DNA of 64,000 nt, taken from contig JBAZGT010000009.1 of assembly GCA_041652735.1 (NCBI GenBank), forward strand, positions 4,563-68,562, written 5' to 3'. The DNA is from Dehalococcoidales bacterium (GTDB lineage: Bacteria; Chloroflexota; Dehalococcoidia; Dehalococcoidales; RBG-16-60-22). The position numbers and the translations under genes were made by a program. Numbering within the stretch: position 1 is the first letter of the stretch; every line of letters starts with the position of its first letter. The notes beneath the pieces are model-generated. The model was not told the origin of the DNA and did no database searches. It saw nothing but the letters and a program-made list of their open reading frames with translations. This document shows, in pieces, positions 15,611 through 30,034 of the stretch.

Positions 15611-15700
15611 TTACCTTCCCCCGTAGCGCTCCTCCGTCCAGGGGTCGCCGTTGATAAAAATCCTCCTCTCATCAAAAAAGTCGGATAGCGGCGAAAGAGA
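15611..15700 (-). pseudogene. internally deleted remnant of a sulfite-oxidase-like Moco oxidoreductase gene (paralog of 30402..31004)
   Basis: TTACCTTCCCCCGTAGCGCTCCTCCGTCCAGGGGTCGCCGT matches 30402..30442 at about 36 of 41 positions. CATCAAAAAAGTCGGATAGCGGC matches 30617..30642. The roughly 200 bp in between are missing. Confidence 0.55.
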
Positions 15701-15742
15701 TTGAGAGCGGTAATCCAGTGCCGGTTAACCGCCCCGGTTTGT

Positions 15743-16003
15743 TTATAATGAGCTTTTATTTTTCAGCGGCTTCAGGAGATATTCCAGTCCATTAATTTTT
15801 ATTTCATATATTGCGGCCAATTGCGCCAGGCGGTCGCGCACCCGGGTGATTACTACTTCGTCCAGAGAGCCGGTCTGTTCCTTCCGGTAGCGGGCAATAA
15901 AAGGAACGGTGGCGCCTTCGGCCATAAGCGACTCGATAGAACGTATTTGCCAGAGCTTGACCCCCAGTTCATCAGCGACCCGCGCAGTATTTAGTCCGGT
16001 CAT
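15743..16003 (-). pseudogene. N-terminal fragment of Tex (transcription accessory protein)
   Basis: ARVADELGVKLWQIRSIESLMAEGATVPFIARYRKEQTGSLDEVVITRVRDRL is the conserved Tex N-terminus. The ORF stops after 86 aa, whereas Tex proteins are about 700 aa. Confidence 0.6.
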
Positions 16004-16228
16004 AAATCTTTAGCTTCTTCTCATAAATTGATTATTTACCAACTTCCCCCTATCATTGAAGCATTATCCAAGAGTAATATTCAAGCGATGTAACCGGCGC
16101 AAGGGTATTTATTCCCCGGGAGGCTTTGCGGGTGCAGGCAGTTCTGGGGAAGACCGCCGGTATAAAGTAAAGTGTTAGTGGATTCGAGAATTATTTTACT
16201 GTTGGTTATCATCACCGGCTGGCTGCCG

Positions 16229-16993
16229 TCAGGGGCGCAGGAAATAGCCAAAGCCGCGGGCGGTCAACAGGTGCTGCGGATTCACCGGGTCGGTTTCTAT
16301 CTTCTGGCGCAGTGACCATATGTGGGTATCGATAGTTCTTTCGTTGCCTTCATAGTTGAATCCCCATAGCCCTTGCACGATATCGTTCCTCTGGAATATT
16401 TTCCCGGCGTTTTTCGCCAGTAATGAAAGTATGGCGGATTCTCTCGGTGTAATGGGCACTACGCTGCCGTCCTGGCGTTTTAGCTGCTTGTTGGCGGTGT
16501 CAAGCTGATATTGCCCGATTTTTATCTTGACCGGCTCATCCGGATTTTTCACGGGTGCGGCGTGGCTGGAACGCCGGAGGTGATTCCAGATGCGGGCTAA
16601 TAATTCCCGACTGTAAAAAGGCTTGGCGATAAAATCATCCGCCCCGAGTTTGAAACAGGCAATCTTGTCATCTTCAGCGGTGTCGGTGGAAATGATGATA
16701 ATGGGAATATATGATTTTTTACGCATCATTTTGCAGATTGAATGTCCGTGAATATCCGGAAGCTGGATGTCCATAATTACAGCATCGGGATAACAGGCAT
16801 CGAACAGCATTAGTCCGTCTTTACCGTTTAAAGCGGGAATTACCTTAAAGTATTCCTCGGCCAGCGTCATCTTTATCTGTGACAGTGAAGGCTCGTCGCC
16901 GTCGATACAGAGTATTTTCTTCCGCTCTATGGTCGCGCTCATACGCTTAAGACCATCCGGTCCCCGCTGTAGCTGTCCGGTGCTTCGTGCCAT
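16229..16993 (-). CDS. OmpR/PhoB-family response regulator (last gene of the pst unit)
   Basis: Receiver domain (ILCIDGDE...VIMDIQLPD...) plus a winged-helix region (LTPRESAILSLLAKNAG...IDTHIWSLRQKIE). The start may be the internal M (MSATIERKK, 16942). There is no sensor kinase gene in the window. Confidence 0.85.
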   Translation of the reverse strand: MARSTGQLQRGPDGLKRMSATIERKKILCIDGDEPSLSQIKMTLAEEYFKVIPALNGKDGLMLFDACYPDAVIMDIQLPDIHGHSICKMMRKKSYIPIIIISTDTAEDDKIACFKLGADDFIAKPFYSRELLARIWNHLRRSSHAAPVKNPDEPVKIKIGQYQLDTANKQLKRQDGSVVPITPRESAILSLLAKNAGKIFQRNDIVQGLWGFNYEGNERTIDTHIWSLRQKIETDPVNPQHLLTARGFGYFLRP

Positions 16994-17007
16994 GAATTCA
17001 TTTTTCT

Positions 17008-17769
17008 TTATTCTCCAAGAATCCAGTTGCGCCTGTTTTTCAGATATTCTTTTGTTTCCGGCTGTTGCGGGTTTTTAAAAACCTGTTTCGTTTCTCCGTA
17101 CTCGACCACCCTGCCGTCGGCCATAAAGACCAGAAAGTCGGAGATATTCAGGGCGTCGCTCATATTATGCGTGACCAGTACCTGCGTGTACTCGGTTTTC
17201 ATCTTTAAAATAGTGGACTCCAGCTGGGCGGTGGACACGGGGTCCAGGGAAGAAGAGGGTTCATCGAGCAGTATTACTTCAGGCGAAACGGACAGGGTAC
17301 GCGCGATGCACAAACGCTGCTGTTGCCCCAGTGAAAGCTCCAGCGCGCTGTCTTTAAGCCTTCCGCACAGTTCGTCCCACAGGGCGGCTTTCATCAGGCT
17401 GCTTTTCACGATTTCCTTGTGGTCGTATTTCCGGTTTCTGTCCGCTTTAAGGCCGTATACAACGTTGGACTGGATAGACATTGGAAACGGGTTCGGTCTC
17501 TGAAAAACCATCCCCACCCGCCGCCGCAGCAGAATAGGGTCAATCTGACGGATATCCATGCCGTCCAGCAGGATACTGCCCTTCACTTTACAGGAATTAC
17601 TCATCTCATTGAGGCGGTTTAGACAGCGCAATAAGGTGGTCTTGCCGCAACCGGATGGGCCGATGATGGCGGTAACCGCGCCCTTTTCTATATTAAGGTT
17701 GATGCCCTTGATTACGGCGGTGCCGCCATAATACACGTAAAGGTCCTTAATCGTTATACAAGCGGTCAT
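17008..17769 (-). CDS. pstB: phosphate ABC transporter ATP-binding protein
   Basis: Walker A GPSGCGKTT, LSLGQQQRLCIAR signature, Walker B ILLDEPSSSLD, and a PstB-typical length of 253 aa. Confidence 0.93.
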   Translation of the reverse strand: MTACITIKDLYVYYGGTAVIKGINLNIEKGAVTAIIGPSGCGKTTLLRCLNRLNEMSNSCKVKGSILLDGMDIRQIDPILLRRRVGMVFQRPNPFPMSIQSNVVYGLKADRNRKYDHKEIVKSSLMKAALWDELCGRLKDSALELSLGQQQRLCIARTLSVSPEVILLDEPSSSLDPVSTAQLESTILKMKTEYTQVLVTHNMSDALNISDFLVFMADGRVVEYGETKQVFKNPQQPETKEYLKNRRNWILGE

Positions 17770-17823
17770 ATTATACCTTCCCGGTTTTACTCTTATAGCT
17801 TCATCAGGGCATCCGCCATCACG

Positions 17824-19179
17824 CTACGCCTGATACCTTTTGGAGTAAGCGCGTTTAAGTATCAGCGAAGCCACGCCGAAGCTGAGGGTAATGATTATCA
17901 GCAACAAAGCCGCTGAATATTCGTAGCCCACCATCGTATCACGGAAAGACTTGGGCCCGCCGAAGTTTACATTGAAAATCAAATGGGAAAGTGATATTAC
18001 TTCAGAAAAAGGCCCGACCCCCGCTTCCCCGGTTGTAGCCATGAAGATCAATATAGATACGCTTCCGGCAGCCTCAGCGCATCCCAGCAGCCATCCCGTA
18101 ATGATGTTGGGCATACTCCACGGTAATAAGATATGAGTAAAAGTGTATCCCTGGGAAGCTCCCATCGCCAGCGAGCCTTCCTTCAGATGCAGCGGCACGG
18201 AGCGCAGGCCTTCTTCCGTGGCGCTGGCTATTAGCGGGATGACCAGCATGGATAGAAATATGGCCGAAAGGATAAACGACCCGTGGGCGATATGCTCGTA
18301 GCCGTTGGCATCCCGGTAATAGCCGGTAATAAATTTGGCGAGGGGGAAATCGTAATTATTCTCGGCCACTCTCACCAGGCTGTAAGCCGTGATGCCCAGA
18401 ATAAAAACAGAAACACCGCGCAGCGCCGTGGTACAAAAGCGTATTATCCCGGCGCTTTTTCCGGCATACTCGCTGATAAAGGCGCCGGTCCCGATACCCA
18501 CCGGGAGAGAAATTATGGACACCAGTATTATCAGCAATAATGTACCCAGGATATGGTTGCTCATCCCGACCTGCTTGCTGGCCTGGTCGTATGAGCTGGT
18601 GATAACCTGCCAATCAAGCTGCGGAACGCCTTCTATCATTAACCGGATTAACACCAGCAGATAACAAATGAGAACGATTAATACCGGGAAGACAATCACC
18701 GGGTATCTCGCTAAATCTTTCGCGCTTGGCGTCGCTCCCTTCAGAAAGAACAGCGCGTAGCTGAAAACAGGCAGCGCTGAAGCTAAAATAAAAACGGCGG
18801 AAACCACCGAACGATTTATGACGGCCTGACCGAGATTATAGTTTCCCACGCCCACCCCGCCCATGTTGAATGTCTCCGGTATCAGGCTGATGATAACGGG
18901 ATATATCACCGCTAAACCCGTTAAGAACATCATCTTTTTTGATATAGTATTTCTGATAATCCGGCTGGTAAACATTAACAGCAGATTGGCTGACGCCAGG
19001 ATTATCAGCAGCGGAATAGTGTACATATCAATTGTGTTTAGACTGATTGACAGGAAACCTATAACCAGGGCGGCTGAAGACACCAGCAAAACCATGCCGG
19101 GGATGATTTTATGCCATAACCCGTTCATTCCGTTTTTAAAATGCGGAGCCGTGGCGGTTGGGGATATTGTCGTGCTCAC
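17824..19179 (-). CDS. pstA: phosphate ABC transporter permease PstA (long form with N-terminal extra TM helices)
   Basis: 451 aa, polytopic. It carries an EAA-like loop (ATEEGLRSVPLHLKEGSLAMGAS). It overlaps pstC by 4 nt. Confidence 0.85.
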   Translation of the reverse strand: MSTTISPTATAPHFKNGMNGLWHKIIPGMVLLVSSAALVIGFLSISLNTIDMYTIPLLIILASANLLLMFTSRIIRNTISKKMMFLTGLAVIYPVIISLIPETFNMGGVGVGNYNLGQAVINRSVVSAVFILASALPVFSYALFFLKGATPSAKDLARYPVIVFPVLIVLICYLLVLIRLMIEGVPQLDWQVITSSYDQASKQVGMSNHILGTLLLIILVSIISLPVGIGTGAFISEYAGKSAGIIRFCTTALRGVSVFILGITAYSLVRVAENNYDFPLAKFITGYYRDANGYEHIAHGSFILSAIFLSMLVIPLIASATEEGLRSVPLHLKEGSLAMGASQGYTFTHILLPWSMPNIITGWLLGCAEAAGSVSILIFMATTGEAGVGPFSEVISLSHLIFNVNFGGPKSFRDTMVGYEYSAALLLIIITLSFGVASLILKRAYSKRYQA

Positions 19180-20117
19180 TTGATTGAAACCTTTTTAAGT
19201 CTTGAAGTTATTATCGTCAGCAGTATCATGATGCCGAAGGCTATTATCAGCAGAAAAAGCGCCGTAAGATAAGCGACCGCGCAGTCATAACCTTCACATG
19301 ACCCGCGTACCTGGAAACCGCCCGCCAGGTTGGCGGCGCTGGATGTCAGGGTGGGTGTTGATTCCAGGATGTCCCATAACGGATTGGTCATGTCCGGCGC
19401 GGCCGCCGGTCTTTCATAGCCGATGGCGAAGGTGACGATAATCAGGTCGCCGATTGCTTTTAAAGACCCCAGGCTTATGGCGGAAATAATGCCCGCCATT
19501 GAATTAGGAAGAGTAATGTGCCATAAGGTATGCCACCGGGACATACCCAGGGCCAGGGAGCCTTCTTTAAGCTCACGGGGGACGTTCTTTATCGCGTCAT
19601 CGATCAGCGGCGCCATAAATGGAATAATCATCAATGCCACCATGAGGCCGCCGAGGAGGGTGTTGTTATTGAGCGAGAACTTGGGCTTCATAATCAGCTC
19701 CACGAATACCACCATCAGCAGGGCGTACACTATCGGCGGTATTCCGGATAGCAGCGTGAGCGCGTTCCGTATGGAGCGGCTGACAACACCGAGGCGGAAC
19801 TCGGATGATATTACGGCCAGCGCCAGGGAAGCCGGCAGGGCGATCCCCAGGGCAAGTATTACCACCATGACCGTGCCCCAGATAGCCGGCAGCATGCCGT
19901 AGACATGAGTGGAAGCGGTGAATTTTCCCACGAACTCCGTGGAGAATATTTCTCCTATCCCGATACCTTTGATGGCCGGCATACTCTGCCAAACCGTCAG
20001 GCTGATAACCGCCAGCAGCATCAGGACGGGTACCGCGGTCAGCAGAAAAGAGATGCCTTTGGGCCAGGACCTCATCCAGGGCCTGGTCTCGCCGAATATG
20101 GAGTTCAGGTGAGGCAT
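19176..20117 (-). CDS. pstC: phosphate ABC transporter permease PstC
   Basis: 313 aa, 6 TM, EAA loop DDAIKNVPRELKEGSLALGMSRW. It starts 6 nt after the preceding cohesin-anchor gene. Confidence 0.85.
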   Translation of the reverse strand: MPHLNSIFGETRPWMRSWPKGISFLLTAVPVLMLLAVISLTVWQSMPAIKGIGIGEIFSTEFVGKFTASTHVYGMLPAIWGTVMVVILALGIALPASLALAVISSEFRLGVVSRSIRNALTLLSGIPPIVYALLMVVFVELIMKPKFSLNNNTLLGGLMVALMIIPFMAPLIDDAIKNVPRELKEGSLALGMSRWHTLWHITLPNSMAGIISAISLGSLKAIGDLIIVTFAIGYERPAAAPDMTNPLWDILESTPTLTSSAANLAGGFQVRGSCEGYDCAVAYLTALFLLIIAFGIMILLTIITSRLKKVSIK

Positions 20118-20123
20118 GCCGTC

Positions 20124-20903
20124 CTAAGACCGCTTTCCTTTTCTTACCACGATAGCGATTACCACCCCGACCACCACCACGCCGGCCACTACGCCGATGA
20201 CGATGCCGGTGGGGAATGAAGAGTCTTTTTCCGCCTGGCTATCAGTTCCCGGCTGGCTGGTTCCCGGCTGACTATCGGTAGCCCCGGACGCGGAACCCGC
20301 CGTGATTACGGCATCGCTTATGACCAGCTCCGGCGCTTTTACGCTATTATAGCCATCCAGATCATAGACGCTGGCGGTGATATCGACTGACCCCGTGCTG
20401 TCTTTAAGATTGCTCGTAGCTATGCTTATATCGGCCTGTCCGTTAGCTATTACTTCAAAAGAATAACGGGCTATAACGCCGCTCCCTTTTACCCCGCTGA
20501 AAGAGGCGATGCCGATGATATCCACATAACCTATATCATTGTATATACCGGACTCGATTGACGGCAGGTCCGGCATGCTGGGCCCGGTTATCATGCTGTC
20601 CGGGGGGAAAAGAGCGTCCGCCGGCATTTCCACGGCTTTACACTTTAGTATTTTAGAGCTGAAACTCAGGGCGAACTGTACGCCGGAGCAGTCATAGTCG
20701 CTGGGAAGCTGCAAATAGACATCGACATCGAATTTGTCTCCCTTGGAAACCTGTAAATCGGATTGAATGCCCGCGGCTGCTGTGTCCGTATCAACACTTA
20801 ATTGAAATCCTGTTTCCGCCATTACCGGCTGGGAGAGCAGTCCCAAGCCCAGCAGGATTACACCCATAAGGCTGATTACTTTTATCTTTATTTTTCCTGG
20901 CAT
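20124..20903 (-). CDS. membrane-anchored cohesin-like protein (signal peptide, one cohesin-like module, S/T/Q/P linker, C-terminal TM anchor)
   Basis: SP LLGLGLLSQPVMA. Module: KGDKFDVDVYLQLPSDYDCSGVQFALSFSSKILKCKAVEM...GVIARYSFEVIANGQADISI. Linker: GSASGATDSQPGTSQPGTDSQ. TM: GIVIGVVAGVVVVGVVIAIVV followed by RKGKRS. Confidence 0.65.
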   Translation of the reverse strand: MPGKIKIKVISLMGVILLGLGLLSQPVMAETGFQLSVDTDTAAAGIQSDLQVSKGDKFDVDVYLQLPSDYDCSGVQFALSFSSKILKCKAVEMPADALFPPDSMITGPSMPDLPSIESGIYNDIGYVDIIGIASFSGVKGSGVIARYSFEVIANGQADISIATSNLKDSTGSVDITASVYDLDGYNSVKAPELVISDAVITAGSASGATDSQPGTSQPGTDSQAEKDSSFPTGIVIGVVAGVVVVGVVIAIVVRKGKRS

Positions 20904-20945
20904 TTCTTTTTTCCTTTCTAACTTTTTTCCCCTGTTTGCTTACCG

Positions 20946-21548
20946 CTATCTCGCCTTTTTCCTGCAGGCCAGCAATAAATACATCACGATTCCCGCTCCG
21001 AATATCGACACCAGAATCAGCATCAGCGTAGACCAGGGAAATGCTTTTATTGCTGCCGCGAGCGCCGGCGGAGCCGCCACCGTATAGTAGACCTTGGTGG
21101 TGGCATCCAGGTCAAAAAACGCCCCCTGTACTCCGGTGACCCGGTGAGCGCTGATATATGCCAGATAAGTGCCCGGCTCGGTATCGGGCGGTAATTCCAG
21201 CGTCAGCTGTATGGATTGTTCTCCGCTGGGTTTCAGCAGGAACGGTTCTTGCGGATTAATGCGTAAATAATCGCCTGATTTGTATTTAGCGGCGTTTGTT
21301 TCCGATATTTCAGCGATGAAATAGCCGTCTACCTTTCCGGGATTCAGGACGATAATATTGGGTAACCTGTATATTTTGCCGCTTTCGAGCGGCTCATCGA
21401 CACGCACTATGCCGGGCACGATGCCTACGCCCATTTCAGTCCCGCCCCTGGCCGGGAACGGGCTCATCTGTATACTTATAATCACCAGTAAAATGGCCGC
21501 GGCCGCCTGGATAAATTTGCCCGCTATGTTCTTCTTATGGGTTTTCAT
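20946..21548 (-). CDS. secreted single-domain protein with C-terminal TM anchor
   Basis: 200 aa. Signal/anchor AAAAILLVIISIQ, an Ig-like body ending in the PPDTEPGTYLAYISAH motif, then TM LMLILVSIFGAGIVMYLLL plus CRKKAR. Confidence 0.6.
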   Translation of the reverse strand: MKTHKKNIAGKFIQAAAAILLVIISIQMSPFPARGGTEMGVGIVPGIVRVDEPLESGKIYRLPNIIVLNPGKVDGYFIAEISETNAAKYKSGDYLRINPQEPFLLKPSGEQSIQLTLELPPDTEPGTYLAYISAHRVTGVQGAFFDLDATTKVYYTVAAPPALAAAIKAFPWSTLMLILVSIFGAGIVMYLLLACRKKAR

Positions 21549-23262
21549 GGGTGGTCGCCTGCAAAGAAATACGTATATTGTGTGGATTGGGGTCTACCGA
21601 GTAGGTAGGCATGAAGATTTTTAGGTCGAAGGTTGCGGTCTGGTCCGGCTTCAGGGCCTGAATCAGCGGCTGATAATCACGCTTCAGGTTAATCCACGTG
21701 GTATTACTGTTCAGGCGCACCTGGTGAGAATACTGTTCATCGCCCGGCGTATCGGCGAGGTACCAGGTGATGCCGTTGTCCCTGGTAGCGTCGGAGCTTT
21801 TTATATCGATATCGATGGTAACTTCGCCGGTATTCTTGACCGTTTGCGTGTCCCACATATCCACGGTACTGCGGGAACCGCCGAATTCTATCGTGCCGTA
21901 TTCTATTAACCCGTCATCGACGGAAAAACTGATGATAACGGCGGCGGCGACGGTGCAATTGATATTCACTTCAGCGGCCATATACGGGTCGCTGACGGAG
22001 CCGGTGTTATTATTTTCCAGGGCTTCCGTAACGGCATCTTCATAATCTACGTAGATTTCCACGATATCTGAATCGCCGGAAACCGTAAATACATAATTCT
22101 GGAAGTTGCCTTCCAGTTCAGCGCCGATACCGAGACTACTGACCGTCTCGGTAATCTGCGGAGAGCTCGAACCGTCCACAAAAGCGCCCACTTTAAAGGC
22201 AGGCGCTTCAAGACTGCCCTGGTTCTTGACCGTGTAATTTATCCGGTAGGCCAGCTGGCCTTCATCCAGTTCCTTGGCTTCAAAATCGGTCAAAACCAGG
22301 TCGGCCATCTGGGGCCATATATAGACGGCCGTGTTATTGTTTTCCGATGACTCTTCCACGATGCCCGTGCCGTCACACTTCAAGGTTATCGCGTCCACGG
22401 TATCTGATAGCGTCACCTCCAGGCCGTTGAAATTCCCCTGGTAGGAATCGCCGGCTGCCAGCACAGGTACCGTCTCGGTGGCCAGCGCCTGGGTCTGGTT
22501 ATCGATAAATAATTGGGCCTGTGATGCCGCCGCATCGGCATCGCCCTGGTTGGTGATGGTGTAATCAATTGAGTACAGACCCGTTTCCTGGTCCAGCCAG
22601 GCAGCCGCCAGGTGGGTAATGGCCAGGTCCGGCATCGGCTCGCCGGTGCCTACCGTCACGGTCCCGTTTTGAATGGTCATTTGCGATTCCGGGGGCAGGG
22701 GCGGCGGCGGCGACTGCAATAGCGCATCGGAACCATCCTGATTGGATATGCTGCTGCCGACGATATTGATATCCGTGGTACCGTTGGTGATGGCTTTGAA
22801 CGTATAACGCGCCATCACACCGCTGCCGTGAGCGGTAGTGGTAAAGGAACTGGGGCCGGTATTATTCGTCTGGCCGGGTGTGCTTACGTCAAAAGCTACA
22901 AAAACCTGGAATGAGGGGGCGGGATAAAGGTAGAAGCTATCGCTCCCCACGTTCACGGCCTGGCATTGGATTATGCTTGGGTCCCAGGTTAGCTGGGCGC
23001 AGGCGCCGCATGACTCATAGCCGCCGGCCAGTTTTATCCAGAGGTCCACATTAAAAGTGGTCCCGGCGGTGATAATAGTACTGGATTGGATATCGCCATC
23101 GCCGGAGGCGACGCAATCGATACTGATACTGGGAGCCGGAGGGGCGGCATCGGCCAAAACAGGCTCCGCTTTACGGCTGACGCCCAGTCCCAGGCTTAAA
23201 ACCGTTACCAGTATCAGGCCTATTTGAAAAACAAGTCTTATTTGCGTCCTGGTCAATAACAT
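21535..23262 (-). CDS. secreted cohesin-like / 2x CARDB-like / C-terminal beta-domain protein
   Basis: SP. Cohesin-like module (TAGTTFNVDLWIKLAGGYESCGACAQLTWDPSIIQCQAVNVG...GVMARYTFKAITNGTTDINI). Two CARDB-like repeats (PDLAITHL...ITNQGDADA...ESSENNNTA and ADLVLTDF...VKNQGSLEA...ALENNNTG). An unclassified 150-aa C-terminal domain. No TM anchor. Confidence 0.7.
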   Translation of the reverse strand: MLLTRTQIRLVFQIGLILVTVLSLGLGVSRKAEPVLADAAPPAPSISIDCVASGDGDIQSSTIITAGTTFNVDLWIKLAGGYESCGACAQLTWDPSIIQCQAVNVGSDSFYLYPAPSFQVFVAFDVSTPGQTNNTGPSSFTTTAHGSGVMARYTFKAITNGTTDINIVGSSISNQDGSDALLQSPPPPLPPESQMTIQNGTVTVGTGEPMPDLAITHLAAAWLDQETGLYSIDYTITNQGDADAAASQAQLFIDNQTQALATETVPVLAAGDSYQGNFNGLEVTLSDTVDAITLKCDGTGIVEESSENNNTAVYIWPQMADLVLTDFEAKELDEGQLAYRINYTVKNQGSLEAPAFKVGAFVDGSSSPQITETVSSLGIGAELEGNFQNYVFTVSGDSDIVEIYVDYEDAVTEALENNNTGSVSDPYMAAEVNINCTVAAAVIISFSVDDGLIEYGTIEFGGSRSTVDMWDTQTVKNTGEVTIDIDIKSSDATRDNGITWYLADTPGDEQYSHQVRLNSNTTWINLKRDYQPLIQALKPDQTATFDLKIFMPTYSVDPNPHNIRISLQATTHENP

Positions 23263-23278
23263 ACTCTACTCCGATTGT

Positions 23279-24343
23279 TTATCTTCCCCGCCTACGGGAA
23301 ACGATTATAAATATTGTCATGCCCACGGTTACTACGGAGGCGAAGACCGCTATCATGGTATACCACGGGAAAGCCAAGACCTTTTCCTGTTCCATGTCGC
23401 CCAGCACTGCGGTGTTGCCGTAATCACGGAGCAGCCTTTCCTGCTCATCCGGCGGCAGGGTTGGCGTTGCCTCTTCTTTTAAAGGCTCCAGCACTTCAAA
23501 TTCAGCTTCCCGGCTGTCTATAAGCTCATCTACCGTATTTCCGCTAGCATCGGCGGCGGGATGGTATACGCTGGATTTCATCCTGTATTTCCCGGCCGGC
23601 AGTCCTTCCTGTAATGTCTGGGTAAAGCGGAAGGAGAACTCGGGAACGATTGAACTCGTGGTGAGTGAAGTATTGCTGGAGATTACCATTTCCCCGCTGG
23701 AATTACGTATCTCTAACGCGTTATAAGCTTTATAATGATGGTTTCCCGTGTTTTTTACGATTGTCTGAATCGGTATAGGCTCACCGGATGGCACGGTTTC
23801 CGCCATCAGGTCGGTTATCTCGCCTTGATGTGTGAGCCCGGCGTTTACCGGCGTTAAGATAACCGGGACCTTTATTCCCTGAGCGAAATCCATGCTTTCC
23901 ATGGAGCTTTCCGGGTAAGCCAGGACGTAAATAAGGGCATACAACGTGCCGTCTTCATTAAAATCATCCGGTATTTTTATGGTGAATTTGGCCTCTTGTT
24001 CCTCGCCGCCCTTCAGGGTGAAAGAGGCGTTTTCTATGTTGCTTATATAAGGAAGGGCGGTAAAGGGGGAAATATCGTGGATTTCGTCCAGTACTTCGTA
24101 GATGCCGTCCAGGTTTTGCCCGAAACCGGCTGATAAGATATTGACTATCAGCGCCGGGTCATTGGCCTTACTTGAAACGAATATCTCGTGGGTGTATGAC
24201 TGCCCGGCCTGGACATCGATATCACAGATGCCGTTGCGGACACGCAGCGACGGGCCATCCGCCTGGACCGGAATGACGCCCAGGAGCTGTAGCCCCAAGC
24301 CCAGTAATAATACGATAATTGGCGATATTATTTTCTTCATCAA
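23279..24343 (-). CDS. secreted two-module protein with C-terminal TM anchor
   Basis: 354 aa. SP LLLGLGLQLLGVIPVQA, two Ig-like modules, an acidic linker, then TM YTMIAVFASVVTVGMTIFIIV plus SRRRGR. It is the first gene after the Pho-type promoter. Confidence 0.65.
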   Translation of the reverse strand: MMKKIISPIIVLLLGLGLQLLGVIPVQADGPSLRVRNGICDIDVQAGQSYTHEIFVSSKANDPALIVNILSAGFGQNLDGIYEVLDEIHDISPFTALPYISNIENASFTLKGGEEQEAKFTIKIPDDFNEDGTLYALIYVLAYPESSMESMDFAQGIKVPVILTPVNAGLTHQGEITDLMAETVPSGEPIPIQTIVKNTGNHHYKAYNALEIRNSSGEMVISSNTSLTTSSIVPEFSFRFTQTLQEGLPAGKYRMKSSVYHPAADASGNTVDELIDSREAEFEVLEPLKEEATPTLPPDEQERLLRDYGNTAVLGDMEQEKVLAFPWYTMIAVFASVVTVGMTIFIIVSRRRGR

Positions 24344-24348
24344 TACTG

Positions 24349-24402
24349 ATTATACCGGTATGTTGTTAAGGTTCTATCAATACGCCGTTAAAACGTAGTT
24401 AA
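24349..24402 (-). promoter_or_regulatory. Pho-box-type promoter: four TTAACA-like hexamers at exact 11-bp phasing plus consensus -10
   Basis: The minus strand reads TTAACT-acgtt-TTAACG-gcgta-TTGATA-gaacc-TTAACA-acataccgg-TATAAT-cagtattg-ATG. Boxes lie at 24397, 24386, 24375 and 24364; the -10 is at 24349..24354. There is no SD, which implies a leaderless or near-leaderless mRNA. Confidence 0.6.
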
Positions 24403-24466
24403 GAGTTTTTAAAATATTTGTTAGGTATATAGTAAGGTGTCCCGGGGTGATACAGGATTTTCTCCC

Positions 24467-24505
24467 CAAAAAAGAAGGAGGGATGGACTGAAATAGTCCA
24501 CCCCC
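24467..24505 (-). terminator. rho-independent terminator after the 828-aa scaffold gene
   Basis: The minus strand reads GGGGTGGACT-atttc-AGTCCATCCC (one mismatch), followed by TCCTTCTTTTTTGG. Confidence 0.6.
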
Positions 24506-24532
24506 CCCCGCGTTATACGGAATTGCCGGTGT

Positions 24533-27019
24533 TTAGAAAACTACCCCGGCGTTGAAGGTTACGCATATGTAGTAAACGTTACCGTTGGTTAGCATGGCGT
24601 CAGCCCACTCCACTTCCTGGCTGAAAGTAATCTGGAAATTTTCGCCCAGATTGCCGTTTTGCCCGTCAGTGTCGCCTTCGCAAATCATCCCCGGCCCCGC
24701 CAGTATCACGGTGAAACTGCCGCACTTGATGATCATGGCATGGTTCAATTTTTCCGGGTTATCAGCGAAAGTGCTGCCGTTCCATTCGGTCATAAAGCCG
24801 TTGGAAATGGAATCTGCATCGCTGACATCTACCTGCCAGGGAACGTTGCTCTTGATGTTCAGTGTGCCGCTAGCCGTGTTGATGCCGATGGTAAGGTGCC
24901 AGGAATCGATATCACTCGGACTGGTAAGCTCGATATCGGCCATGACATTACCGTTGATATCCGTCGTGTCGGAATCGCTTTCATAGGATATCAGGTTGGT
25001 TTTGATGTTGTTGCCCTCATTGGACTCAACAACCAGGCCGGTGCTGTCCGCGGTGATGGTGATGATATCGTAAATACCCACCAGGTTGAAAGGCCCGACG
25101 GCGGTATAGGTCTTCTTCTGTCCGGCCGCCAGGCCGCCGGTTACCGTCACGTTTTTGGTCTGGGCGGGGTCGCCATTGCTCACGGAAACGATGAATTCCG
25201 GGGCGGCCAGGTCGCCGATGTTTTCCACCGTGAAATTAACCCGGTAAGAAACTCCATCGGATATCCAGGTCTCCGCCTTGTAGTTGACGACGATGTCAGG
25301 AAGACCGAACAGGTCGGTGGCGGTGTTGTTGTTTTCGTTCGACTCCGTGATATCCATGATGTAGTCGGCGATGACGGTTATTTCATCGGAGCCGTCGGAT
25401 AGGGTGAAGGGGCCCTTGGTGATATTGGCGCTCGCGCCGCCCACCAGGTTGTTGGGGAACTGGGCGAGAGTAATGAAAGCGCCGTCAATCAGGATACCGC
25501 ACTGGTTGGCTTCGTGCGCGGTAGCCGTGCCGCCGCCGATGTTCTTCACGGTGAAAGAGATGTTGTAGGTCCCGCTACCCTGGTCTACCCACGTTTCATT
25601 AAGGTTTTCGATGGTCAGGTCAGGCAGGGTGGAGGCGGTGATGTTTACGCTGTCGTTATAAACATTCAGGTCAGGTTCGGTAATGGGATTGCCCACATCA
25701 TCGGAGAGGCTGGGGGTGATGAGGCTGATGGCGGCAACGCCGGCGGCCTTCGCTTTGAACTCGTATCTCATGAAGACCTTATTGGTGGAGCTGTCGCCGG
25801 GCAGGTAAAGCAGACCGGTGATAGCTACCTGGCCGGTAGTGTTATTGATGCCGCCGTTGGCAATGGTCGGAAGCTCCGCCAGGGGGCCTACCACGAGGGA
25901 CGGAGGGACCGGATATTTGTAAGGAGCCCCGCTCCCCACGGTTACGGATTTGCATTCCAGTTTATTCTGGTCAAAAGAGAGCGCCGCCGCGGCGCCGGAA
26001 GAAACGAAGCCGCTGGGTACGGTCACCTCGACATCTACGTTGAAGGTAGAGTAAAGGTCGGCGTTGGTCGGGGCGTTGACCGTCATGGCATAAGCGGCGA
26101 AGATGCTGGTCATGGTGTTGTTGGTCTCGTTTTCTTCGGTGATGTCTTCATTACTATCCGCGAAGACGATGATAGTGTCCGTGCCGCCGGTCATGGTAAT
26201 GGGCCCGACGGTCTGTACGGGAGTGCTGGCGCCAGCCGCCAGGTTGCCCAGGGTTACGGAGCCGGCAGCCGGGGTGATGTCCGGGTCGCTGTCCGGGTAA
26301 ACGCCGGTTATCCAGCTGCTGGTGATATCGGCCGCGCCCTGGTTCTTGACGACGAACTTGACCTGGTAGGTGCCCGCATCCGGGTTTATCCATTCCGCGT
26401 ACTGCTGGGTGACGATCAGGTCCGGTCTAGGCTGGGCCACGGTGATGGAACCGCCCTGCACGTTCAGGCCGGATCCCTGGAGAATAGGAGATTCGCCACT
26501 AGGGTCCGACACGCTGGCGCCGACGATGTTGATGTTGGTGCTGCCCGCGCCGATGGCATGGAAGGTGTACCGGGCCATCACGCCGCTGCCCTGGGCGGTG
26601 GCGGAAGAGGAGCTGGGGCCGGTATTATTCGTTTGCCCCGGGGTGGTCAGGTTGAAGGCAACGGCTAAGGAGAATGGCGGAGACGGGAAAAGATAGGGGG
26701 CGGCGCTGCCTATAGTCGCTGCCGTGCACTCCAGCACAGCCGGGTCCCAGGTGAGCTGGGCGGCCGCGCCGGCGGACTCAAAGCCGCTTTCAAGTGATAC
26801 CCATGCGTCTACATCAAAAGACTCACCGATAGCTACCGTTCTGGTCTGCTGTATGTTTCCATCGCCTGAGACGGTGCAATCAATGCTCATGCTCGGCGCC
26901 GCTGGCGGTGCGTCAGCGTAGGCGGCGGCGGCGGGGAGCAAAAATGCAGTGAGAGTCACTATCCCGGCGGCAGCTAAACTGATAGCTTTTGCCCTTATTT
27001 TTTTAAGAGAGCTATTCAA
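24533..27019 (-). CDS. large secreted scaffold protein: cohesin-like / CARDB / cohesin-like / CARDB / CARDB / C-terminal beta-domain
   Basis: 828 aa. SP LTAFLLPAAAAYA. Cohesin-like 1 (IGESFDVDAWVSLESGFESAGAAAQLTWDPAVLECTAATIG...). Cohesin-like 2 (YSTFNVDVEVTVPSGFVSSGAAAALSFDQNKLECKSVTVG...). Three CARDB-like repeats, each starting PDL/PDI and ending E(E/S)NE(T/N/G)NN. The C-terminal domain has SWHL and PWQVDV motifs. No TM anchor. Confidence 0.75.
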   Translation of the reverse strand: MNSSLKKIRAKAISLAAAGIVTLTAFLLPAAAAYADAPPAAPSMSIDCTVSGDGNIQQTRTVAIGESFDVDAWVSLESGFESAGAAAQLTWDPAVLECTAATIGSAAPYLFPSPPFSLAVAFNLTTPGQTNNTGPSSSSATAQGSGVMARYTFHAIGAGSTNINIVGASVSDPSGESPILQGSGLNVQGGSITVAQPRPDLIVTQQYAEWINPDAGTYQVKFVVKNQGAADITSSWITGVYPDSDPDITPAAGSVTLGNLAAGASTPVQTVGPITMTGGTDTIIVFADSNEDITEENETNNTMTSIFAAYAMTVNAPTNADLYSTFNVDVEVTVPSGFVSSGAAAALSFDQNKLECKSVTVGSGAPYKYPVPPSLVVGPLAELPTIANGGINNTTGQVAITGLLYLPGDSSTNKVFMRYEFKAKAAGVAAISLITPSLSDDVGNPITEPDLNVYNDSVNITASTLPDLTIENLNETWVDQGSGTYNISFTVKNIGGGTATAHEANQCGILIDGAFITLAQFPNNLVGGASANITKGPFTLSDGSDEITVIADYIMDITESNENNNTATDLFGLPDIVVNYKAETWISDGVSYRVNFTVENIGDLAAPEFIVSVSNGDPAQTKNVTVTGGLAAGQKKTYTAVGPFNLVGIYDIITITADSTGLVVESNEGNNIKTNLISYESDSDTTDINGNVMADIELTSPSDIDSWHLTIGINTASGTLNIKSNVPWQVDVSDADSISNGFMTEWNGSTFADNPEKLNHAMIIKCGSFTVILAGPGMICEGDTDGQNGNLGENFQITFSQEVEWADAMLTNGNVYYICVTFNAGVVF

Positions 27020-27079
27020 TTTGTTCCCTCCATTATTTTTTCTTGTTCTGGTTGTCAGTTTGATAAGCCCAAATTATTT

Positions 27080-28264
27080 TTACTGGGGGGCGATCCACGA
27101 GCGCCCGAGTCTCTTGCCGACGACGACGACATCACCGATATCCACGGCGCCGTTGCCGTTAGCGTCCTTGTGATTGGTGGGATACCAGCCGGACTGCCCG
27201 AGCGCGCGTCCGACGACGACGACGTCACCGATGTCGCAAGCCCTGTTATTGTTCTGGTCCCAGTACAGGGTCTGGGTTACGGCGGTTATGGCATCGTTGG
27301 TGGGTAGTTTGACATACCCCTCGTCAACAACGATAGCCTGGCCCTCGGAGCTAAGTATCCAGTTGACGTAATCAAGGGCTTCAAGCTTGTAGGTGTTGCC
27401 GCCGGTCCTGTCAAAATCCGGGTGCCGGGTGTATAAGTAAAGGAGACGTGACAGCGGGTAGGTGCCGTTACCCACGGTGGTCTGGCTGCACTGTATGGGA
27501 GTGCCGCTGCTGTTCTGGACGGGAATAGTGGTAATTCCGGGAGTAGTGAGGAAACCGAGACCGCAGTAACCTATCTGCGATTCCTCGTGCGTGGGCGCCG
27601 GTGATTCTACCATGCCGGCGATGGCGCTCGCCATGGTGTCATTGCTTTCCAGCCTGTTAAGGCCGGTAGCATCCACCGCTAGCTCTTCTCCCGCTTCGGT
27701 GGCGGAGCCTATCAGGCTCAGGAATGAAGACCGGGTGCCGGAATCTGTAATCCTGGCGCGCGGGATGATGGGATATAGAGACCCGTGAGTACCGGTATAC
27801 CCTGAAAGGCTGTCCCAGTATACTATATCGTTGCCCTGGTAGATATTGTAAAGTTCCACCTTGGTAATGGAAGTGACGCTGCCGTGGATATAAGCGGAAA
27901 GTCCGTCGTTTACGATGACGGCGATTCCGTCCCAGGCTATCTTGGTTTCAAAGACCTTGTTGATATCGTAGCTTGATTCCAGTACTTTGGAACGCATGGC
28001 GATATCGCACTGGGCGGGTTCGGTGAAGAGGGCTACGGAGCCCTGGCCGGAACCGCCGCCCTGGTATTGCAGGTCGATGTTGGGGAAGTCGGACTCGAAT
28101 TGAATTTCGCTGCCGTTTACAATGGGATAAACGGTGGTGGAACCTTTTAGTAGTATACCGACCGGGGCGGCCAGCGCCGGGATAGAGGTTACGAGGATGA
28201 CACCGAGCATCAAGAGGACGCCCAACAGTGCCAATAAAGACTTCTTGCCTTTCAATTTAATCAA
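27080..28264 (-). CDS. PstS-family phosphate-binding protein with C-terminal dockerin-like module
   Basis: SP ending PALA-AP with no lipobox Cys. PstS blocks GSTTVYP, GGGSGQG, DIAMRS, GIAVIVN, DSGTRSSF, GTYPLSRLLYLY. A C-terminal duplicated Ca-loop segment. TTG start with a GGAGGAG SD. Confidence 0.8.
   Translation of the reverse strand: MIKLKGKKSLLALLGVLLMLGVILVTSIPALAAPVGILLKGSTTVYPIVNGSEIQFESDFPNIDLQYQGGGSGQGSVALFTEPAQCDIAMRSKVLESSYDINKVFETKIAWDGIAVIVNDGLSAYIHGSVTSITKVELYNIYQGNDIVYWDSLSGYTGTHGSLYPIIPRARITDSGTRSSFLSLIGSATEAGEELAVDATGLNRLESNDTMASAIAGMVESPAPTHEESQIGYCGLGFLTTPGITTIPVQNSSGTPIQCSQTTVGNGTYPLSRLLYLYTRHPDFDRTGGNTYKLEALDYVNWILSSEGQAIVVDEGYVKLPTNDAITAVTQTLYWDQNNNRACDIGDVVVVGRALGQSGWYPTNHKDANGNGAVDIGDVVVVGKRLGRSWIAPQ
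27083..27259 (-). other. dockerin-like module (two 21-22 aa Ca-loop/helix repeats)
   Basis: DQNNNRACDIGDVVVVGRALG - 10-aa linker - DANGNGAVDIGDVVVVGKRLG. Both follow D-x-N-x-N-x3-D-x-x-D plus a hydrophobic helix. Confidence 0.7.
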
Positions 28265-28429
28265 TTTTCTCCTCCATATTGTTTTATCGGATATTCTCTT
28301 TGCTGAAAAATAACATTAGCAACTCCGCTGAACTATCACCCCCTTTACATAATCACGCTCCAGTATTTTCTTCCCCTCTTGAGCATAAATAATTGTTGTT
28401 AGGGCATCATCTAGACGCCGTGAAAATTG

Positions 28430-28470
28430 TGTAAAGAATGGGTTAATTTTTAGTTAATATTCCGGGTTAA
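28430..28470 (-). promoter_or_regulatory. second set of four Pho-box-like hexamers upstream of the dockerin-PstS unit
   Basis: The minus strand reads TTAACC-N7-TTAACT-N5-TTAACC-N5-TTTACA. The -10 is unclear (TAGATG or GATGAT, 15-17 nt downstream). Confidence 0.45.
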
Positions 28471-28523
28471 TGAATACTTGAGTCTGGTTATTTGGCGTTG
28501 ACCAAAAGCGTGATATTCTAGAT

Positions 28524-28557
28524 AAAAAAACGCCCCGGTCTTTTTACTGACGGGGCG
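28524..28557 (-). terminator. rho-independent terminator after lipoprotein pstS
   Basis: The minus strand reads CGCCCCGTC-loop-GAC(C)GGGGCG followed by TTTTTTT. Confidence 0.65.
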
Positions 28558-28584
28558 CTGGATATGCCGGGTGAACGGGCTGTT

Positions 28585-29385
28585 TTAGCCTAACCTGAAA
28601 TAGCCTTCCCTTTCCGCGATGGCCTGCCCTTCCGGCCCCTGGCAAAAGTCCAGGAAATCACGGACACAAGACTTGACATTACCGCGGGTCAGTAATAAAA
28701 GCCTTCTGGTTATGGGATAGGTGCCGTCCTGGAGGGTTTCCAGTGAAGGCTTTATGCCGTTCAGCGTCAGCACTTTGACCGAATCATCCGCGTAAGCCAG
28801 GGATACATAGCCTATCGCCCGCAGGTCTTCAGCGATAACGGTACGCAACGCGCCGTTGCTGGCCTGCAGGATGGCGGTATCCGCGAAATAGGTGCCCGGC
28901 AAGACCGTCTCCAGGAAAGTCTGCTGCGTGCCGGAGCCTTCCTCGCGGGAGACCACGGTAATCTTACCGGACATGCCGCTGACTTCACTCCAGTCCGTAA
29001 TTACCCCGGAGAATATATCCCGCAGCTGCTCCATGGTCAGTCCCGTTATCTGGTTTCCCGGGTTGACGATAACGGCGATGGAGTCTATGGCGATAGGGTA
29101 CTGCTTGACCGGCTTGGCCTCGCTTTCCGTCAACTCCCGTGAGGAGGCCCCTATGTCCACGATGCCGTTGCATACCGAAGAAATACCGCTGCTGGAACCG
29201 CCCCCGGCGACAGTGATTTTTACGTCCGGGTGCAGTCCCATGTATTCTTCTGCCATCACTTCCATCAGCGGCTGGACCGTCGTCGACCCGCTCTCATGTA
29301 TTGTTGTTTCCCCGCTGCTGCATCCGGGCGCCGCCAGCATCAGGCAAATAATGACGATGGCGACTATCGACTTTAGATTTTTCAT
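28585..29385 (-). CDS. pstS: phosphate ABC transporter substrate-binding lipoprotein
   Basis: Lipobox MLAAPGC; PstS blocks GSTTVQP, GGGSSSG, DIGASSR, GSGTQQTF, GTYPITRRLLLL; 266 aa. Confidence 0.9.
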   Translation of the reverse strand: MKNLKSIVAIVIICLMLAAPGCSSGETTIHESGSTTVQPLMEVMAEEYMGLHPDVKITVAGGGSSSGISSVCNGIVDIGASSRELTESEAKPVKQYPIAIDSIAVIVNPGNQITGLTMEQLRDIFSGVITDWSEVSGMSGKITVVSREEGSGTQQTFLETVLPGTYFADTAILQASNGALRTVIAEDLRAIGYVSLAYADDSVKVLTLNGIKPSLETLQDGTYPITRRLLLLTRGNVKSCVRDFLDFCQGPEGQAIAEREGYFRLG

Positions 29386-29489
29386 TGGCAGTCCCCTTTT
29401 TGGCTATTAATACACATTAACCGGTGATGCGCTTGACGCTTCTCTGGTTTATAGCGTGCCGTTTCCCGGACCATAAAGCCACGCCGTTT

Positions 29490-29729
29490 TCAGCCGTTAT
29501 CCGGTGTATCGCCCAATTTCCAGATACAATTCCAGATACGCTGATGCTCATTGATATAAGCAAGCGGGATATTGCTGATTTGTGTCACCTTCAAGGCATA
29601 GGCGCAGCTGCGGGCGATATCACAGAGTTTTTCGCCCTCTTTCTTCGGGCCTTCCACGGACAAAGTAGAGCCGATTTTCCTTATAACCCAGGTGCGGCCA
29701 GCCTCGTCCTTAAATACTTTTACTCTCAT
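29490..29729 (-). CDS. hypothetical protein (79 aa)
   Basis: ORF only, in an AT-richer segment upstream of pstS. I recognise no family. Confidence 0.3.
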   Translation of the reverse strand: MRVKVFKDEAGRTWVIRKIGSTLSVEGPKKEGEKLCDIARSCAYALKVTQISNIPLAYINEHQRIWNCIWKLGDTPDNG

Positions 29730-29915
29730 TCGCGGATATATTTACACCATTTTCTTATCTAAGCATAAGGCCGGGAGTTTAAGGATGGGTCAGGGTTTTG
29801 TTATAAGATTATTATATTTTTTTAAATATTTGGTTAAAGCACGGCGGGCGGTAAAAATCCCTTGCCGGATGTCTCCCCTCCCCGCGCTGGACATAAGCCT
29901 GAAGAATCAACCGGT

Positions 29916-29964
29916 TTGTTAGCTAATTGTTACTTTTGCGCCCCCCTTGTTTACTAATTTGTTA
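29916..29964. promoter_or_regulatory. four TTGTTA (minus strand: xTAACA) direct repeats in two 11-12-bp-spaced pairs
   Basis: TTGTTA at 29916 and 29927, TTGTTTA at 29947, TTGTTA at 29959. They lie between divergent small ORFs and upstream of the pstS unit. Confidence 0.3.
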
Positions 29965-30034
29965 CGTAGTCTGAATACAATTAGGTTATGGGTTGAACAA
30001 CTAGAGCAATTTGTAGCTGTGAGGTCCTGAGAAT

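Follow-up and report, generated by a model that had tools for sequence, protein, structure and literature searches.

A conserved, mobile gene cassette in Dehalococcoidales joins a dockerin-bearing PstS, cohesin scaffolds and a Pst-type importer: a candidate cellulosome-like tether for a binding protein

The DNA analyzed here is a 64,000-nt stretch (the window) of contig JBAZGT010000009.1 from a Dehalococcoidales bacterium (assembly GCA_041652735.1). The system of interest is a cassette of eleven open reading frames (ORFs) at 16229-29385, which combines the gene of a dockerin-bearing PstS-type binding protein with genes for cohesin-bearing surface proteins and for a Pst-type ATP-binding cassette (ABC) importer. 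All positions refer to the window, and L-numbers (L002, L003, and so on) designate related loci. The eleven ORFs lie on the minus strand, with pstS as the first gene and a response regulator as the last (Table 1). From the 354-aa gene to the regulator, the intergenic gaps are 16, -14, 42, 6, -4, 54, and 14 nt, the gene of the cohesin anchor ending 6 nt before pstC (20117/20124). The gene order, the common strand, and the spacings of -14 to 54 nt agree with an earlier note on this DNA, and both terminators, which are hairpins with U-tracts, were found at the places where that note had put them.

Table 1. Genes and other features of the cassette and its borders (window coordinates; all on the minus strand).
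Feature	Position (strand)	Length (aa)	Evidence or remark
Island border repeat	15611-15651 (-)		Duplicate of the 3'-terminal ~40 nt of the Oxidored_molyb gene
Tex-like fragment	15743-16003 (-)	86	N-terminal domain only; Pfam Tex_N E=4.2e-22
OmpR/PhoB-family response regulator	16229-16993 (-)	254	Response_reg + Trans_reg_C; final gene of unit
PstB-type ATPase, cassette-linked lineage	17008-17769 (-)		TIGR00972 324 bits
Long PstA-like permease	17824-19179 (-)	451	TIGR00974 145 bits
PstC-like permease, cassette-linked lineage	19176-20117 (-)		TIGR02138 157 bits
Single-cohesin membrane anchor	20124-20903 (-)	259	AlphaFold2 model + Foldseek
Signal-peptide protein with C-terminal transmembrane anchor	20946-21548 (-)	200	hhalign to 354-aa family
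Secreted scaffold 2	21535-23262 (-)	575	CARDB E=2.5e-27
DUF916/WxLIP_PGBD-like protein	23279-24343 (-)	354	Pfam WxLIP_PGBD matches in family
Promoter 2 (predicted)	24349-24402 (-)		TTAAC-like repeats + TATAAT before 354-aa gene
Intrinsic terminator or attenuator	24475-24509 (-)		After 828-aa scaffold gene
Secreted scaffold 1	24533-27019 (-)	828	CARDB E=7e-39
Dockerin-PstS	27080-28264 (-)	394	PBP_like_2 E=3.7e-20
Promoter 1 (predicted)	28406-28470 (-)		TTAAC-like repeats + -10-like GATGAT before dockerin-PstS gene
Intrinsic terminator	28522-28559 (-)		After pstS
Canonical-type PstS, lipoprotein-like signal	28585-29385 (-)	266	TIGR02136 234.6 bits
Island border repeat	30402-30442 (-)		True 3' end of the Oxidored_molyb gene (30402-31004)

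The 394-aa dockerin-PstS consists of a Sec signal peptide without a lipobox Cys, a PstS-type binding domain, and a C-terminal two-segment dockerin (approximately residues 335-390), which is the sole dockerin detected in the proteins of the window. The dockerin is composed of duplicated DxNxDxxxxxxD Ca-loop-helix segments, DQNNNRACDIGD...DANGNGAVDIGD, with ~70% identity between the two. Its score with Pfam Dockerin_1 (PF00404) is 19.6 bits, the gathering threshold being 22.9. The AlphaFold2 model of the last 73 residues, built with 20 family sequences, shows two helices at a predicted local distance difference test (pLDDT) value of 83.6, and its top 19 matches in the PDB are exclusively dockerins (best 2y3n_B, TM-score 0.70/0.84, root-mean-square deviation 1.5 Å). 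At the level of the predicted fold, the C-terminus is confirmed as a dockerin.

A genome scan with the single dockerin-PstS sequence as query gave no close relative, and relatives emerged when alignments were used. Full-length relatives that are 32-37% identical precede genes of CARDB/cohesin proteins. An exhaustive HMMER search identified PstS proteins extending through the dockerin in at least 73 clusters at 50% identity, and the protein therefore represents a family rather than a lone oddity. Pfam Dockerin_1 is matched by 42 of the 73 members (E<=0.01, best 1.5e-9), a cassette protein of the relatives exceeding the Pfam threshold at 27 bits, and the Ca-loop residues D336, D347, D367, and D378 are near-invariant across the 73. 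The anion-binding motifs of the family (GSTT, GGGS, the Asp of IAxD, and R...SGT) are likewise invariant or near-invariant; in the window protein the anion-binding residues are GSTT, S72, D112, R171, and SGT175-177. The binding domain aligns with solved PstS structures at E~1e-12 and scores 102 bits with TIGR02136, for which the cut-off is 206.6.

Other arrangements were observed in the same searches. In some proteins the PstS-dockerin unit is located at the C-terminus of very large polypeptides, such as P0212 (1557 aa), P0216 (1188 aa), P0132, and others, and some contain two to four tandem PstS domains. Two or three extra dockerin proteins are encoded in tandem just upstream of the dockerin-PstS at L280:315-6395 and L284:1-4822, with Big_3_5 immunoglobulin (Ig)-like repeats plus a YNCE-like beta-propeller, RCC1 repeats, and He_PIG as their domains. 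At L003:14274-17264, a 996-aa DUF7901/GEVED/CARDB protein ends in a dockerin that is 50% identical to that of the window, and at L195:250-1086 a 278-aa protein with Dockerin_1 over the Pfam threshold is encoded immediately before the dockerin-PstS. It is probable that the scaffolds in some lineages display more than PstS.

Four cohesin modules are encoded on the island that contains the cassette (see below), two of them on the 828-aa protein, one on the 575-aa protein, and one on the 259-aa protein. The 828-aa scaffold has the order cohesin, CARDB, cohesin, CARDB, CARDB, and a conserved C-terminal domain of ~150 aa, and is 31% identical over its full length to the 809-aa scaffold of L002. The 575-aa scaffold has a single cohesin and two CARDB domains in addition to a unique C-terminal domain, and neither of the two proteins has a membrane anchor. 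The C-terminal domain of the 828-aa scaffold is conserved in nine lineages and contains a W-x-L motif; no Pfam family matched it, Pfam WxL included, and no homology was detected between it and the C-terminal domain of the 575-aa scaffold, for which Pfam gave no family either. The 259-aa protein has a signal peptide, the cohesin, a Ser/Thr/Gly/Pro-rich linker, and a C-terminal transmembrane helix at residues 234-252.

The assignment of these modules as cohesins required structural comparison. The two cohesins of the 828-aa protein score ~16 bits with Pfam Cohesin (PF00963; E~0.01 each, threshold 24.1), and the 259-aa protein has no Pfam Cohesin match. A profile of the four window cohesins matched nothing among the PDB sequences, and a search by fold was therefore needed. 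For the extracellular module of the 259-aa protein, an AlphaFold2 model based on the four paralogues of the window is of moderate confidence (pLDDT 69), and its top 50 Foldseek matches in the PDB are all cohesins (E 1e-7 to 4e-4, TM-score up to 0.64/0.76). The model confirms the cohesin fold of the anchor as a prediction, and cassette proteins at the same position in relatives exceed the Pfam Cohesin threshold (42 bits in L002, 77 bits in L024). The cohesin and dockerin identities that had been proposed from the sequence are thus sub-threshold in Pfam for the window proteins and are confirmed by the predicted folds together with members of the families that exceed the Pfam thresholds. No protein other than the query was retrieved in a homologue search with the 259-aa anchor; the cohesin modules diverge too quickly for word-seeded searches. 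By sequence identity, the four window cohesins fall into two subtypes, the first cohesin of the 828-aa protein pairing with that of the 575-aa protein (55%) and the second with that of the 259-aa anchor (35%), with 28-37% between the pairs.

The membrane attachment of these proteins can be considered next. In the small cohesin anchor a lipobox is found in L008, L010, L013, L021, L026, and L203, and a C-terminal transmembrane helix in the window and L006; the membrane location of this cohesin is conserved, with an anchor chemistry that varies between lineages. Directly behind each of the two genes of anchorless scaffolds is the gene of a protein that has a signal peptide and a C-terminal transmembrane helix, of 354 and 200 aa, respectively. 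The 354-aa protein is composed of a signal peptide, a DUF916/WxLIP_PGBD-like domain, a second Ig-like domain, and a transmembrane anchor at residues 330-348. Seven of twelve members of its family match Pfam WxLIP_PGBD (PF06030; best 5e-6), the match of the window protein being weak (E=0.038), and genes of this type come after the scaffold gene in the relatives as well. The 200-aa protein, whose gene start overlaps the 575-aa gene by 14 nt and whose transmembrane helix is at residues 175-193, aligns with the N-terminal domain of the 354-aa family (hhalign probability 91.7%, E=7.9e-7) and appears to be a short remote paralogue of that domain. We propose the 354-aa protein as a candidate membrane anchor of the 828-aa scaffold.

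The transporter subunits PstC, PstA, and PstB score below the NCBIfam equivalog cut-offs (156.9 vs 196.45, 145.5 vs 193.45, and 324 vs 343.2 bits, respectively), their best matches still being Pst families. In a comparison with L003, the window PstB shares 59% identity with the module-linked copy and 48% with the canonical one, the corresponding values for PstA being 40% and 30%, and the E-values of the window PstC are far better to the module-linked than to the canonical PstC of the same genomes. The same bias of the transporter subunits is observed in L013, L022, L026, and L028. Hydropathy analysis of the 451-aa PstA gives ~10 hydrophobic segments, ~4 of which are in an N-terminal extension, and the family of long PstA proteins (424-484 aa) contains almost only Dehalococcoidia/Chloroflexota records. 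A complete canonical pstSCAB operon with a short PstA is additionally present in L003, L013, L022, L026, L028, and L198. The window PstCAB is, from these comparisons, a dedicated and cassette-specific divergent paralogous lineage. The 266-aa PstS, on the other hand, reaches 234.6 bits with TIGR02136 (cut-off 206.6), has a lipoprotein-like N-terminus (...LAAPGC), and matches the pstS products of the canonical operons of relatives at E 1e-67 to 1e-75 (2e-75 to L214). Because pstS is of the canonical type and PstCAB of the cassette lineage, the two represent different lineages and not the halves of one split operon.

With respect to the distribution of these proteins, L196, L197, and L030, which are titled Bacillota bacterium GPS1B09 / BS524, are short contigs with a dockerin-PstS or a long PstA, all other hits being from Chloroflexota. 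The Bacillota labels may reflect a binning error or transfer.

Of 19 independent Chloroflexota loci that were found via the long PstA or the dockerin-PstS and had enough flanking DNA, 17 contain the cassette. These loci were annotated with modules derived from the window proteins, and a locus was counted when genes for dockerin-PstS and/or cohesin/CARDB/354-aa-type proteins were directly upstream of PstC, long PstA, and PstB. The PstA identity across the recurring loci is just 36-48%. The recurring set comprises the dockerin-PstS, a scaffold with the ~150-aa C-terminal domain, a protein of 316-900 aa related to the 354-aa one, additional proteins with cohesin/CARDB modules, a small single-cohesin protein with a membrane anchor, in most cases a divergent lipoprotein solute-binding protein (SBP), PstC, long PstA, and PstB. 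The gene of the membrane-anchored cohesin is usually upstream of the transporter genes, near the SBP gene and pstC. Genes of polyphosphate and phosphate metabolism neighbor the cassette at L006:1-802, L008:18542-21404, and L005:848-2383, and encode proteins of the CYTH-CHAD, Ppx-GppA, metallophosphatase, and alkaline phosphatase types. A functional coupling of the cohesin/dockerin genes with the transporter is strongly supported by this synteny, in agreement with the earlier suggestion that they are no random neighbors.

The borders of the cassette were analyzed as well. In the closest relatives the Oxidored_molyb gene adjoins a carboxyltransferase gene and the block is absent from this site; in L114 the homologous flanks are 28 nt apart, as compared to 15.2 kb in the window (15227 to 30419). 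The 3'-terminal ~40 nt of the Oxidored_molyb gene, with its stop codon, are duplicated at 15611-15651, and this copy is identical to 30409-30442 at 32 of 34 positions (E=3e-10), the alignment showing ACGGCGACCCCTGGACGGAGGAGCGCTACGGGGGAAGGTAA. A duplication of this kind marks an insertion that took place at a gene's 3' end. The GC content at third codon positions (GC3) is 0.58-0.725 over all eleven cassette genes and 0.70-0.81 (mostly 0.75-0.81) in the flanking genes. Absence from the site in close relatives, direct repeats, and atypical composition, by which genomic islands are recognized, are thus all observed, and the whole block of ~14.8 kb at 15.6-30.4 kb, pstS and regulator included, is best described as a horizontally acquired island.

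No integrase was found in the island. Full-length Tex proteins are much longer than 86 aa, and the Tex fragment near one border is probably a remnant inside the island. The PurL protein is up to 85-86% identical to those of metagenome-assembled genomes of Dehalococcoidales/Dehalococcoidaceae. SPRUCE 103, which is among the closest relatives by housekeeping genes (PurL 85%), carries a cassette of its own on a different contig, where the dockerin-PstS is only ~31% identical; this location and this low identity, despite the PurL value, argue for horizontal exchange. Within the cassette, GC3 is 0.725 in the 828-aa gene, 0.69-0.725 in the first unit, and 0.58-0.68 in the downstream unit. The AT-richness of the pstCAB and anchor segment relative to the 828-aa gene, from which a mosaic origin had been suggested, is real but modest. 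The mosaic itself is not supported, since all parts of the island have a low GC3 and the composition changes where the island meets the rest of the genome, not inside the cluster.

Two promoter-like regions were identified in the cassette. In promoter 1, TTAAC, TTAAC, TTAAC, TTTAC, and TTCAC start at 28470, 28457, 28446, 28435, and 28424, the last four with 11-bp spacing, and the -10-like GATGAT is at 28411-28406. In promoter 2, TTAAC, TTAAC, TTGAT, and TTAAC start at 24402, 24391, 24380, and 24369, again with 11-bp spacing, and TATAAT at 24354-24349 is located 8 nt before the ATG (24340) of the 354-aa gene, with no Shine-Dalgarno sequence, which suggests that the mRNA of the pstCAB-containing unit is leaderless. 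OmpR/PhoB-family regulators bind direct repeats at a spacing of one helical turn, and the 11-bp repeats therefore fit a regulator of this type. The exact pattern TTAAC-N6-TTAAC occurs at two sites in the 64 kb, both being the cassette promoters and on the coding strand, with 0 of 100 shuffles reaching two and an expectation of 0.10, which overstates the significance because the pattern was picked after inspecting the two promoters. In a partly independent check, 18 upstream regions of pstS/dockerin-PstS genes from other loci gave six near-matches vs ~0.6 expected, one of them inside a coding region. In L210, L026, and L006 the sites precede pstS, with an exact triple repeat before the canonical-type gene of L210, and in L198 they precede the gene of the dockerin-PstS.

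The terminator after pstS is a GC-rich hairpin (-21.1 kcal/mol, z -3.6) followed by U7, and the one after the 828-aa gene combines a 15-bp stem (-30.8 kcal/mol) with a U-tract behind it. Five lineages (window, L002, L003, L006, and L010) share a strong hairpin at this place, immediately behind the scaffold gene, with unrelated sequences; only in the window is it followed by a clear U-tract and then by a second promoter. The hairpin and the second promoter fit a differential expression in which the binding protein and scaffold are made at a high level and the membrane parts at a low level. The tight gaps, the location of the only strong terminator upstream, and the promoter-like TATAAT and repeats before the 354-aa gene are consistent with the co-transcription of pstCAB with the four surface genes, as had been suggested. 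A search against Rfam gave nothing in the window and nothing at E<=1 in four related loci.

Taken together, we consider it likely that the cassette encodes a cellulosome-like non-covalent tether, which would hold PstS at the surface of a presumably monoderm cell, one with no outer membrane, for use by a dedicated importer. The secreted PstS, having a C-terminal dockerin of the Ca2+ type in place of a lipid anchor, would bind through this dockerin to the four cohesins of the island, of which the 259-aa one would be anchored in the membrane beside the permease. The anchorless scaffolds would probably be held by the DUF916-like transmembrane proteins (354 and 200 aa) encoded directly after each of them. 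PstS would in this way be kept at a high local density on a cell without a confining outer membrane, and the tethered PstS, together with the lipid-anchored one, would serve the dedicated PstC/long-PstA/PstB importer. The OmpR/PhoB-type regulator probably drives both internal promoters via the four 11-bp-spaced TTAAC-like repeats, and the hairpin after the scaffold gene may allow a larger output of binding protein and scaffold than of the membrane parts. The envelope of cultured Dehalococcoides is S-layer-like and lacks peptidoglycan. A more far-reaching version, which we regard as tentative and rather doubtful, is a "cellulosome for phosphate", where an outer PstS array would concentrate phosphate and pass it to a membrane-proximal PstS, held by a cohesin or by a lipid, and to the specialized 10-helix PstA, the unit moving between Dehalococcoidia as a mobile island. 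The cell-surface "phosphate antenna" that the earlier note had put forward may likewise apply.

A number of points weigh against the tether. The window encodes one dockerin vs four cohesins of two subtypes, and some of the cohesins may bind something other than the dockerin-PstS. A PstS bound at a distal scaffold cannot easily dock on the permease. A lipoprotein SBP is encoded next to pstC in most relatives and may be the true transport partner; the scaffold-bound PstS might then be an outer capture layer, a buffer, or an adhesin instead of a direct partner in transport. The scores of PstC, PstA, PstB, and dockerin-PstS are under the curated cut-offs for phosphate transporters, and the transported anion may be an oxyanion other than phosphate. 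On the regulatory side, besides the choice of the TTAAC pattern after inspection, the motif was not found upstream of several relatives' genes among the 18 regions scanned. The regulator gives 139 bits with the PhoB model TIGR02154 (cut-off 296) and reaches no NCBIfam equivalog cut-off; of its description in the earlier note as PhoB-like, the OmpR/PhoB type stands, and an identity as PhoB itself does not appear assignable. A tblastn search with the PhoU of L003 gave no PhoU in the window, and no cognate kinase was found there, the PhoR-like query from L002 giving only a weak match to an unrelated kinase domain at 43968-44360.

Some of these points lead to an alternative, where the cassette would be a general Chloroflexota platform for display or adhesion, PstS being one cargo that acts as adhesin, sensor, or buffer, and uptake relying on the lipid-anchored SBP alone. 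L003, L195, L280, and L284 do encode other dockerin cargo beside the dockerin-PstS (Ig, beta-propeller, and RCC1 proteins) with no phosphate-related domain, and the platform is for this reason not exclusive to PstS. The lipoprotein SBP next to pstC in nearly all relatives, and the lipoprotein-like PstS of the window, would also suit this alternative, as would the adhesion role of surface PstS on Pseudomonas aeruginosa appendages (PMC2242829, PMC3949141). However, the tight and recurrent linkage involves specifically a transporter of the Pst type that is dedicated to the cassette, the gene of the membrane-proximal single cohesin usually lies a short distance upstream of the SBP and pstC genes, and the anion-binding residues of the dockerin-PstS are conserved. 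We therefore judge such a platform, with uptake left to the lipid-anchored SBP alone, to be unlikely.

That the transporter and the dockerin-SBP handle another oxyanion, such as arsenate or a phosphorus compound, with the likeness to Pst existing only at the family level, we regard as improbable. The sub-cut-off scores of all four proteins (NCBIfam equivalog or subfamily models) and the unusual N-terminal extension of PstA are compatible with it, whereas the best matches are always Pst families, the PstS binding motifs are conserved, and phosphate-metabolism genes and a canonical pstS adjoin the cassette.

The earlier note had read the locus as a surface-display module inserted inside the pst operon; in this model a foreign module would have entered a pre-existing canonical pstS-pstCAB operon and produced a mosaic. 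The physical order of pstS, surface genes, and pstCAB, and the somewhat higher GC3 of the first unit compared to the second, would be in line with such an insertion. However, PstCAB belongs to the cassette-specific lineage and pstS is canonical-type, the surface genes accompany this PstCAB in the 17 of 19 loci, a canonical pstSCAB exists separately in several genomes, and the entire block, pstS and regulator included, is a single indel with flanking repeats. The insertion of the surface module inside a pst operon is thus largely contradicted and has very little probability left; the reading as a conserved, mobile, and dedicated cassette replaces it on the present sequence comparisons. Chance adjacency of genes that arrived on one island without a functional link, to which only the island nature of the block would testify, can be dismissed with near certainty, since the same combination is found at 36-48% PstA identity in many lineages and in differing genomic contexts.

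The cassette combines systems of known kinds, namely a cohesin-dockerin assembly and an SBP-dependent ABC importer. Like cellulosomes, for example that of Clostridium thermocellum (CipA with the anchoring scaffoldins OlpB/SdbA), it has clustered genes, a cargo that is secreted and ends in a dockerin of two Ca-loop segments, scaffolds in which several cohesins are combined with Ig-like spacers, a further cohesin protein that is itself anchored to the cell, and predicted folds that match solved cohesins and dockerins. It differs in that the cargo is a solute-binding protein instead of a glycoside hydrolase, the anchors are transmembrane helices or lipoboxes, with no S-layer homology (SLH) domain or sortase anchoring seen in the cassette, and the system is hosted by Dehalococcoidales and linked to an ABC importer. 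Pfam scans of the cassette proteins of the window and the relatives gave no carbohydrate-active enzyme (CAZyme) or carbohydrate-binding module (CBM), so that the dockerin-bearing CAZymes and CBM-bearing scaffoldin that characterize a cellulosome are both missing. A multi-enzyme phosphate-scavenging complex was also considered and is unsupported, no phosphatase or nuclease domain being found in the relatives' cassette proteins.

With respect to the canonical high-affinity phosphate uptake by PstSCAB-PhoU/PhoBR, the similarities are a PstS-type domain whose anion-binding residues are conserved, genes for two permeases and an ATPase in the C-A-B order, an OmpR-family regulator, and direct promoter repeats of 11-bp period that resemble Pho boxes. 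The differences are an SBP predicted to be dockerin-tethered instead of periplasmic or lipid-anchored, a PstA with ~4 extra transmembrane helices, the absence of PhoU and of a kinase from the island, transporter subunits below the equivalog cut-offs, and relatives that also hold a canonical pst operon.

Monoderm bacteria and archaea are known to anchor or fuse their substrate-binding domains, as in lipoprotein SBPs and in GlnPQ/OpuA, where the domains are fused to the permease. The cassette would solve the same problem, i.e., holding the binding protein at the membrane, at a higher local concentration, without an outer membrane. Its attachment would in contrast be non-covalent, modular, and multivalent, via a separate scaffold, and, if this is true, it would represent a third solution for cells of this type. 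WxL/DUF916 (CscA-D) cell-surface complexes are known in Firmicutes, and the 354-aa and 200-aa proteins resemble the DUF916 proteins in having a signal peptide, a WxLIP_PGBD-like domain, and a C-terminal transmembrane anchor, each gene directly following that of an anchorless secreted protein with a conserved C-terminal domain. This similarity is remote (window E=0.038, best of the family 5e-6), and the C-terminal domain of the scaffold is not Pfam WxL. In Pseudomonas aeruginosa, PstS/DING appendages place PstS outside the cell under phosphate limitation (PMC2242829, PMC3949141). The display outside the cell is common to both systems, with unrelated mechanisms; the appendages differ in their Gram-negative host, their lack of cohesin-dockerin pairs and of a dedicated gene cassette, and their described role in adhesion and virulence.

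According to a 2017 review (PMC5244752), which cites Peer et al. 2009, no function is known for cohesin-dockerin modules outside cellulosomes. The cassette offers a concrete and testable non-cellulosomal role, i.e., the tethering of the nutrient-binding protein of an ABC importer. In the literature searched (full-text), we found no report of dockerin-fused PstS or of cohesin-dockerin systems in Dehalococcoidia. If the proposed tether is correct, an SBP plugged by its dockerin into a multivalent scaffold would be a previously undescribed way to run a binding-protein-dependent ABC importer, with a bearing on how slow-growing Dehalococcoidia of the subsurface and peat compete for scarce phosphate. 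The small modular parts (60-residue dockerin, 150-residue cohesins, and Ig spacers) are also attractive for surface-display engineering.

Two further observations can be mentioned. A conserved element of ~150 nt is present in the long 5' leader of dockerin-PstS genes at L002:8466-8630, L003:9768-9925, and L005:3484-3645, and possibly at L006:2372-2510; it is not evident in the shorter leader of the window. The element contains a GGGAAG...CTTCCC helix (GGGAGC...GCTCCC in L006), followed by GGTCRARCC and by TCAAGTGGCTnGGG, and may be a cis-regulatory RNA. It has no Rfam match at E<=1, an nhmmer search recovered only the three input sequences (L002, L003, and L005), and RNAalifold predicted no pairs, L006 being misaligned in the input. 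Finally, two small ORFs without a Pfam match are located between pstS and the island border, one of 79 aa at 29490-29729 (-), which is a called gene on a Logan contig, and one of 70 aa at 30035-30247 (+), the product of which appears hydrophobic by eye.

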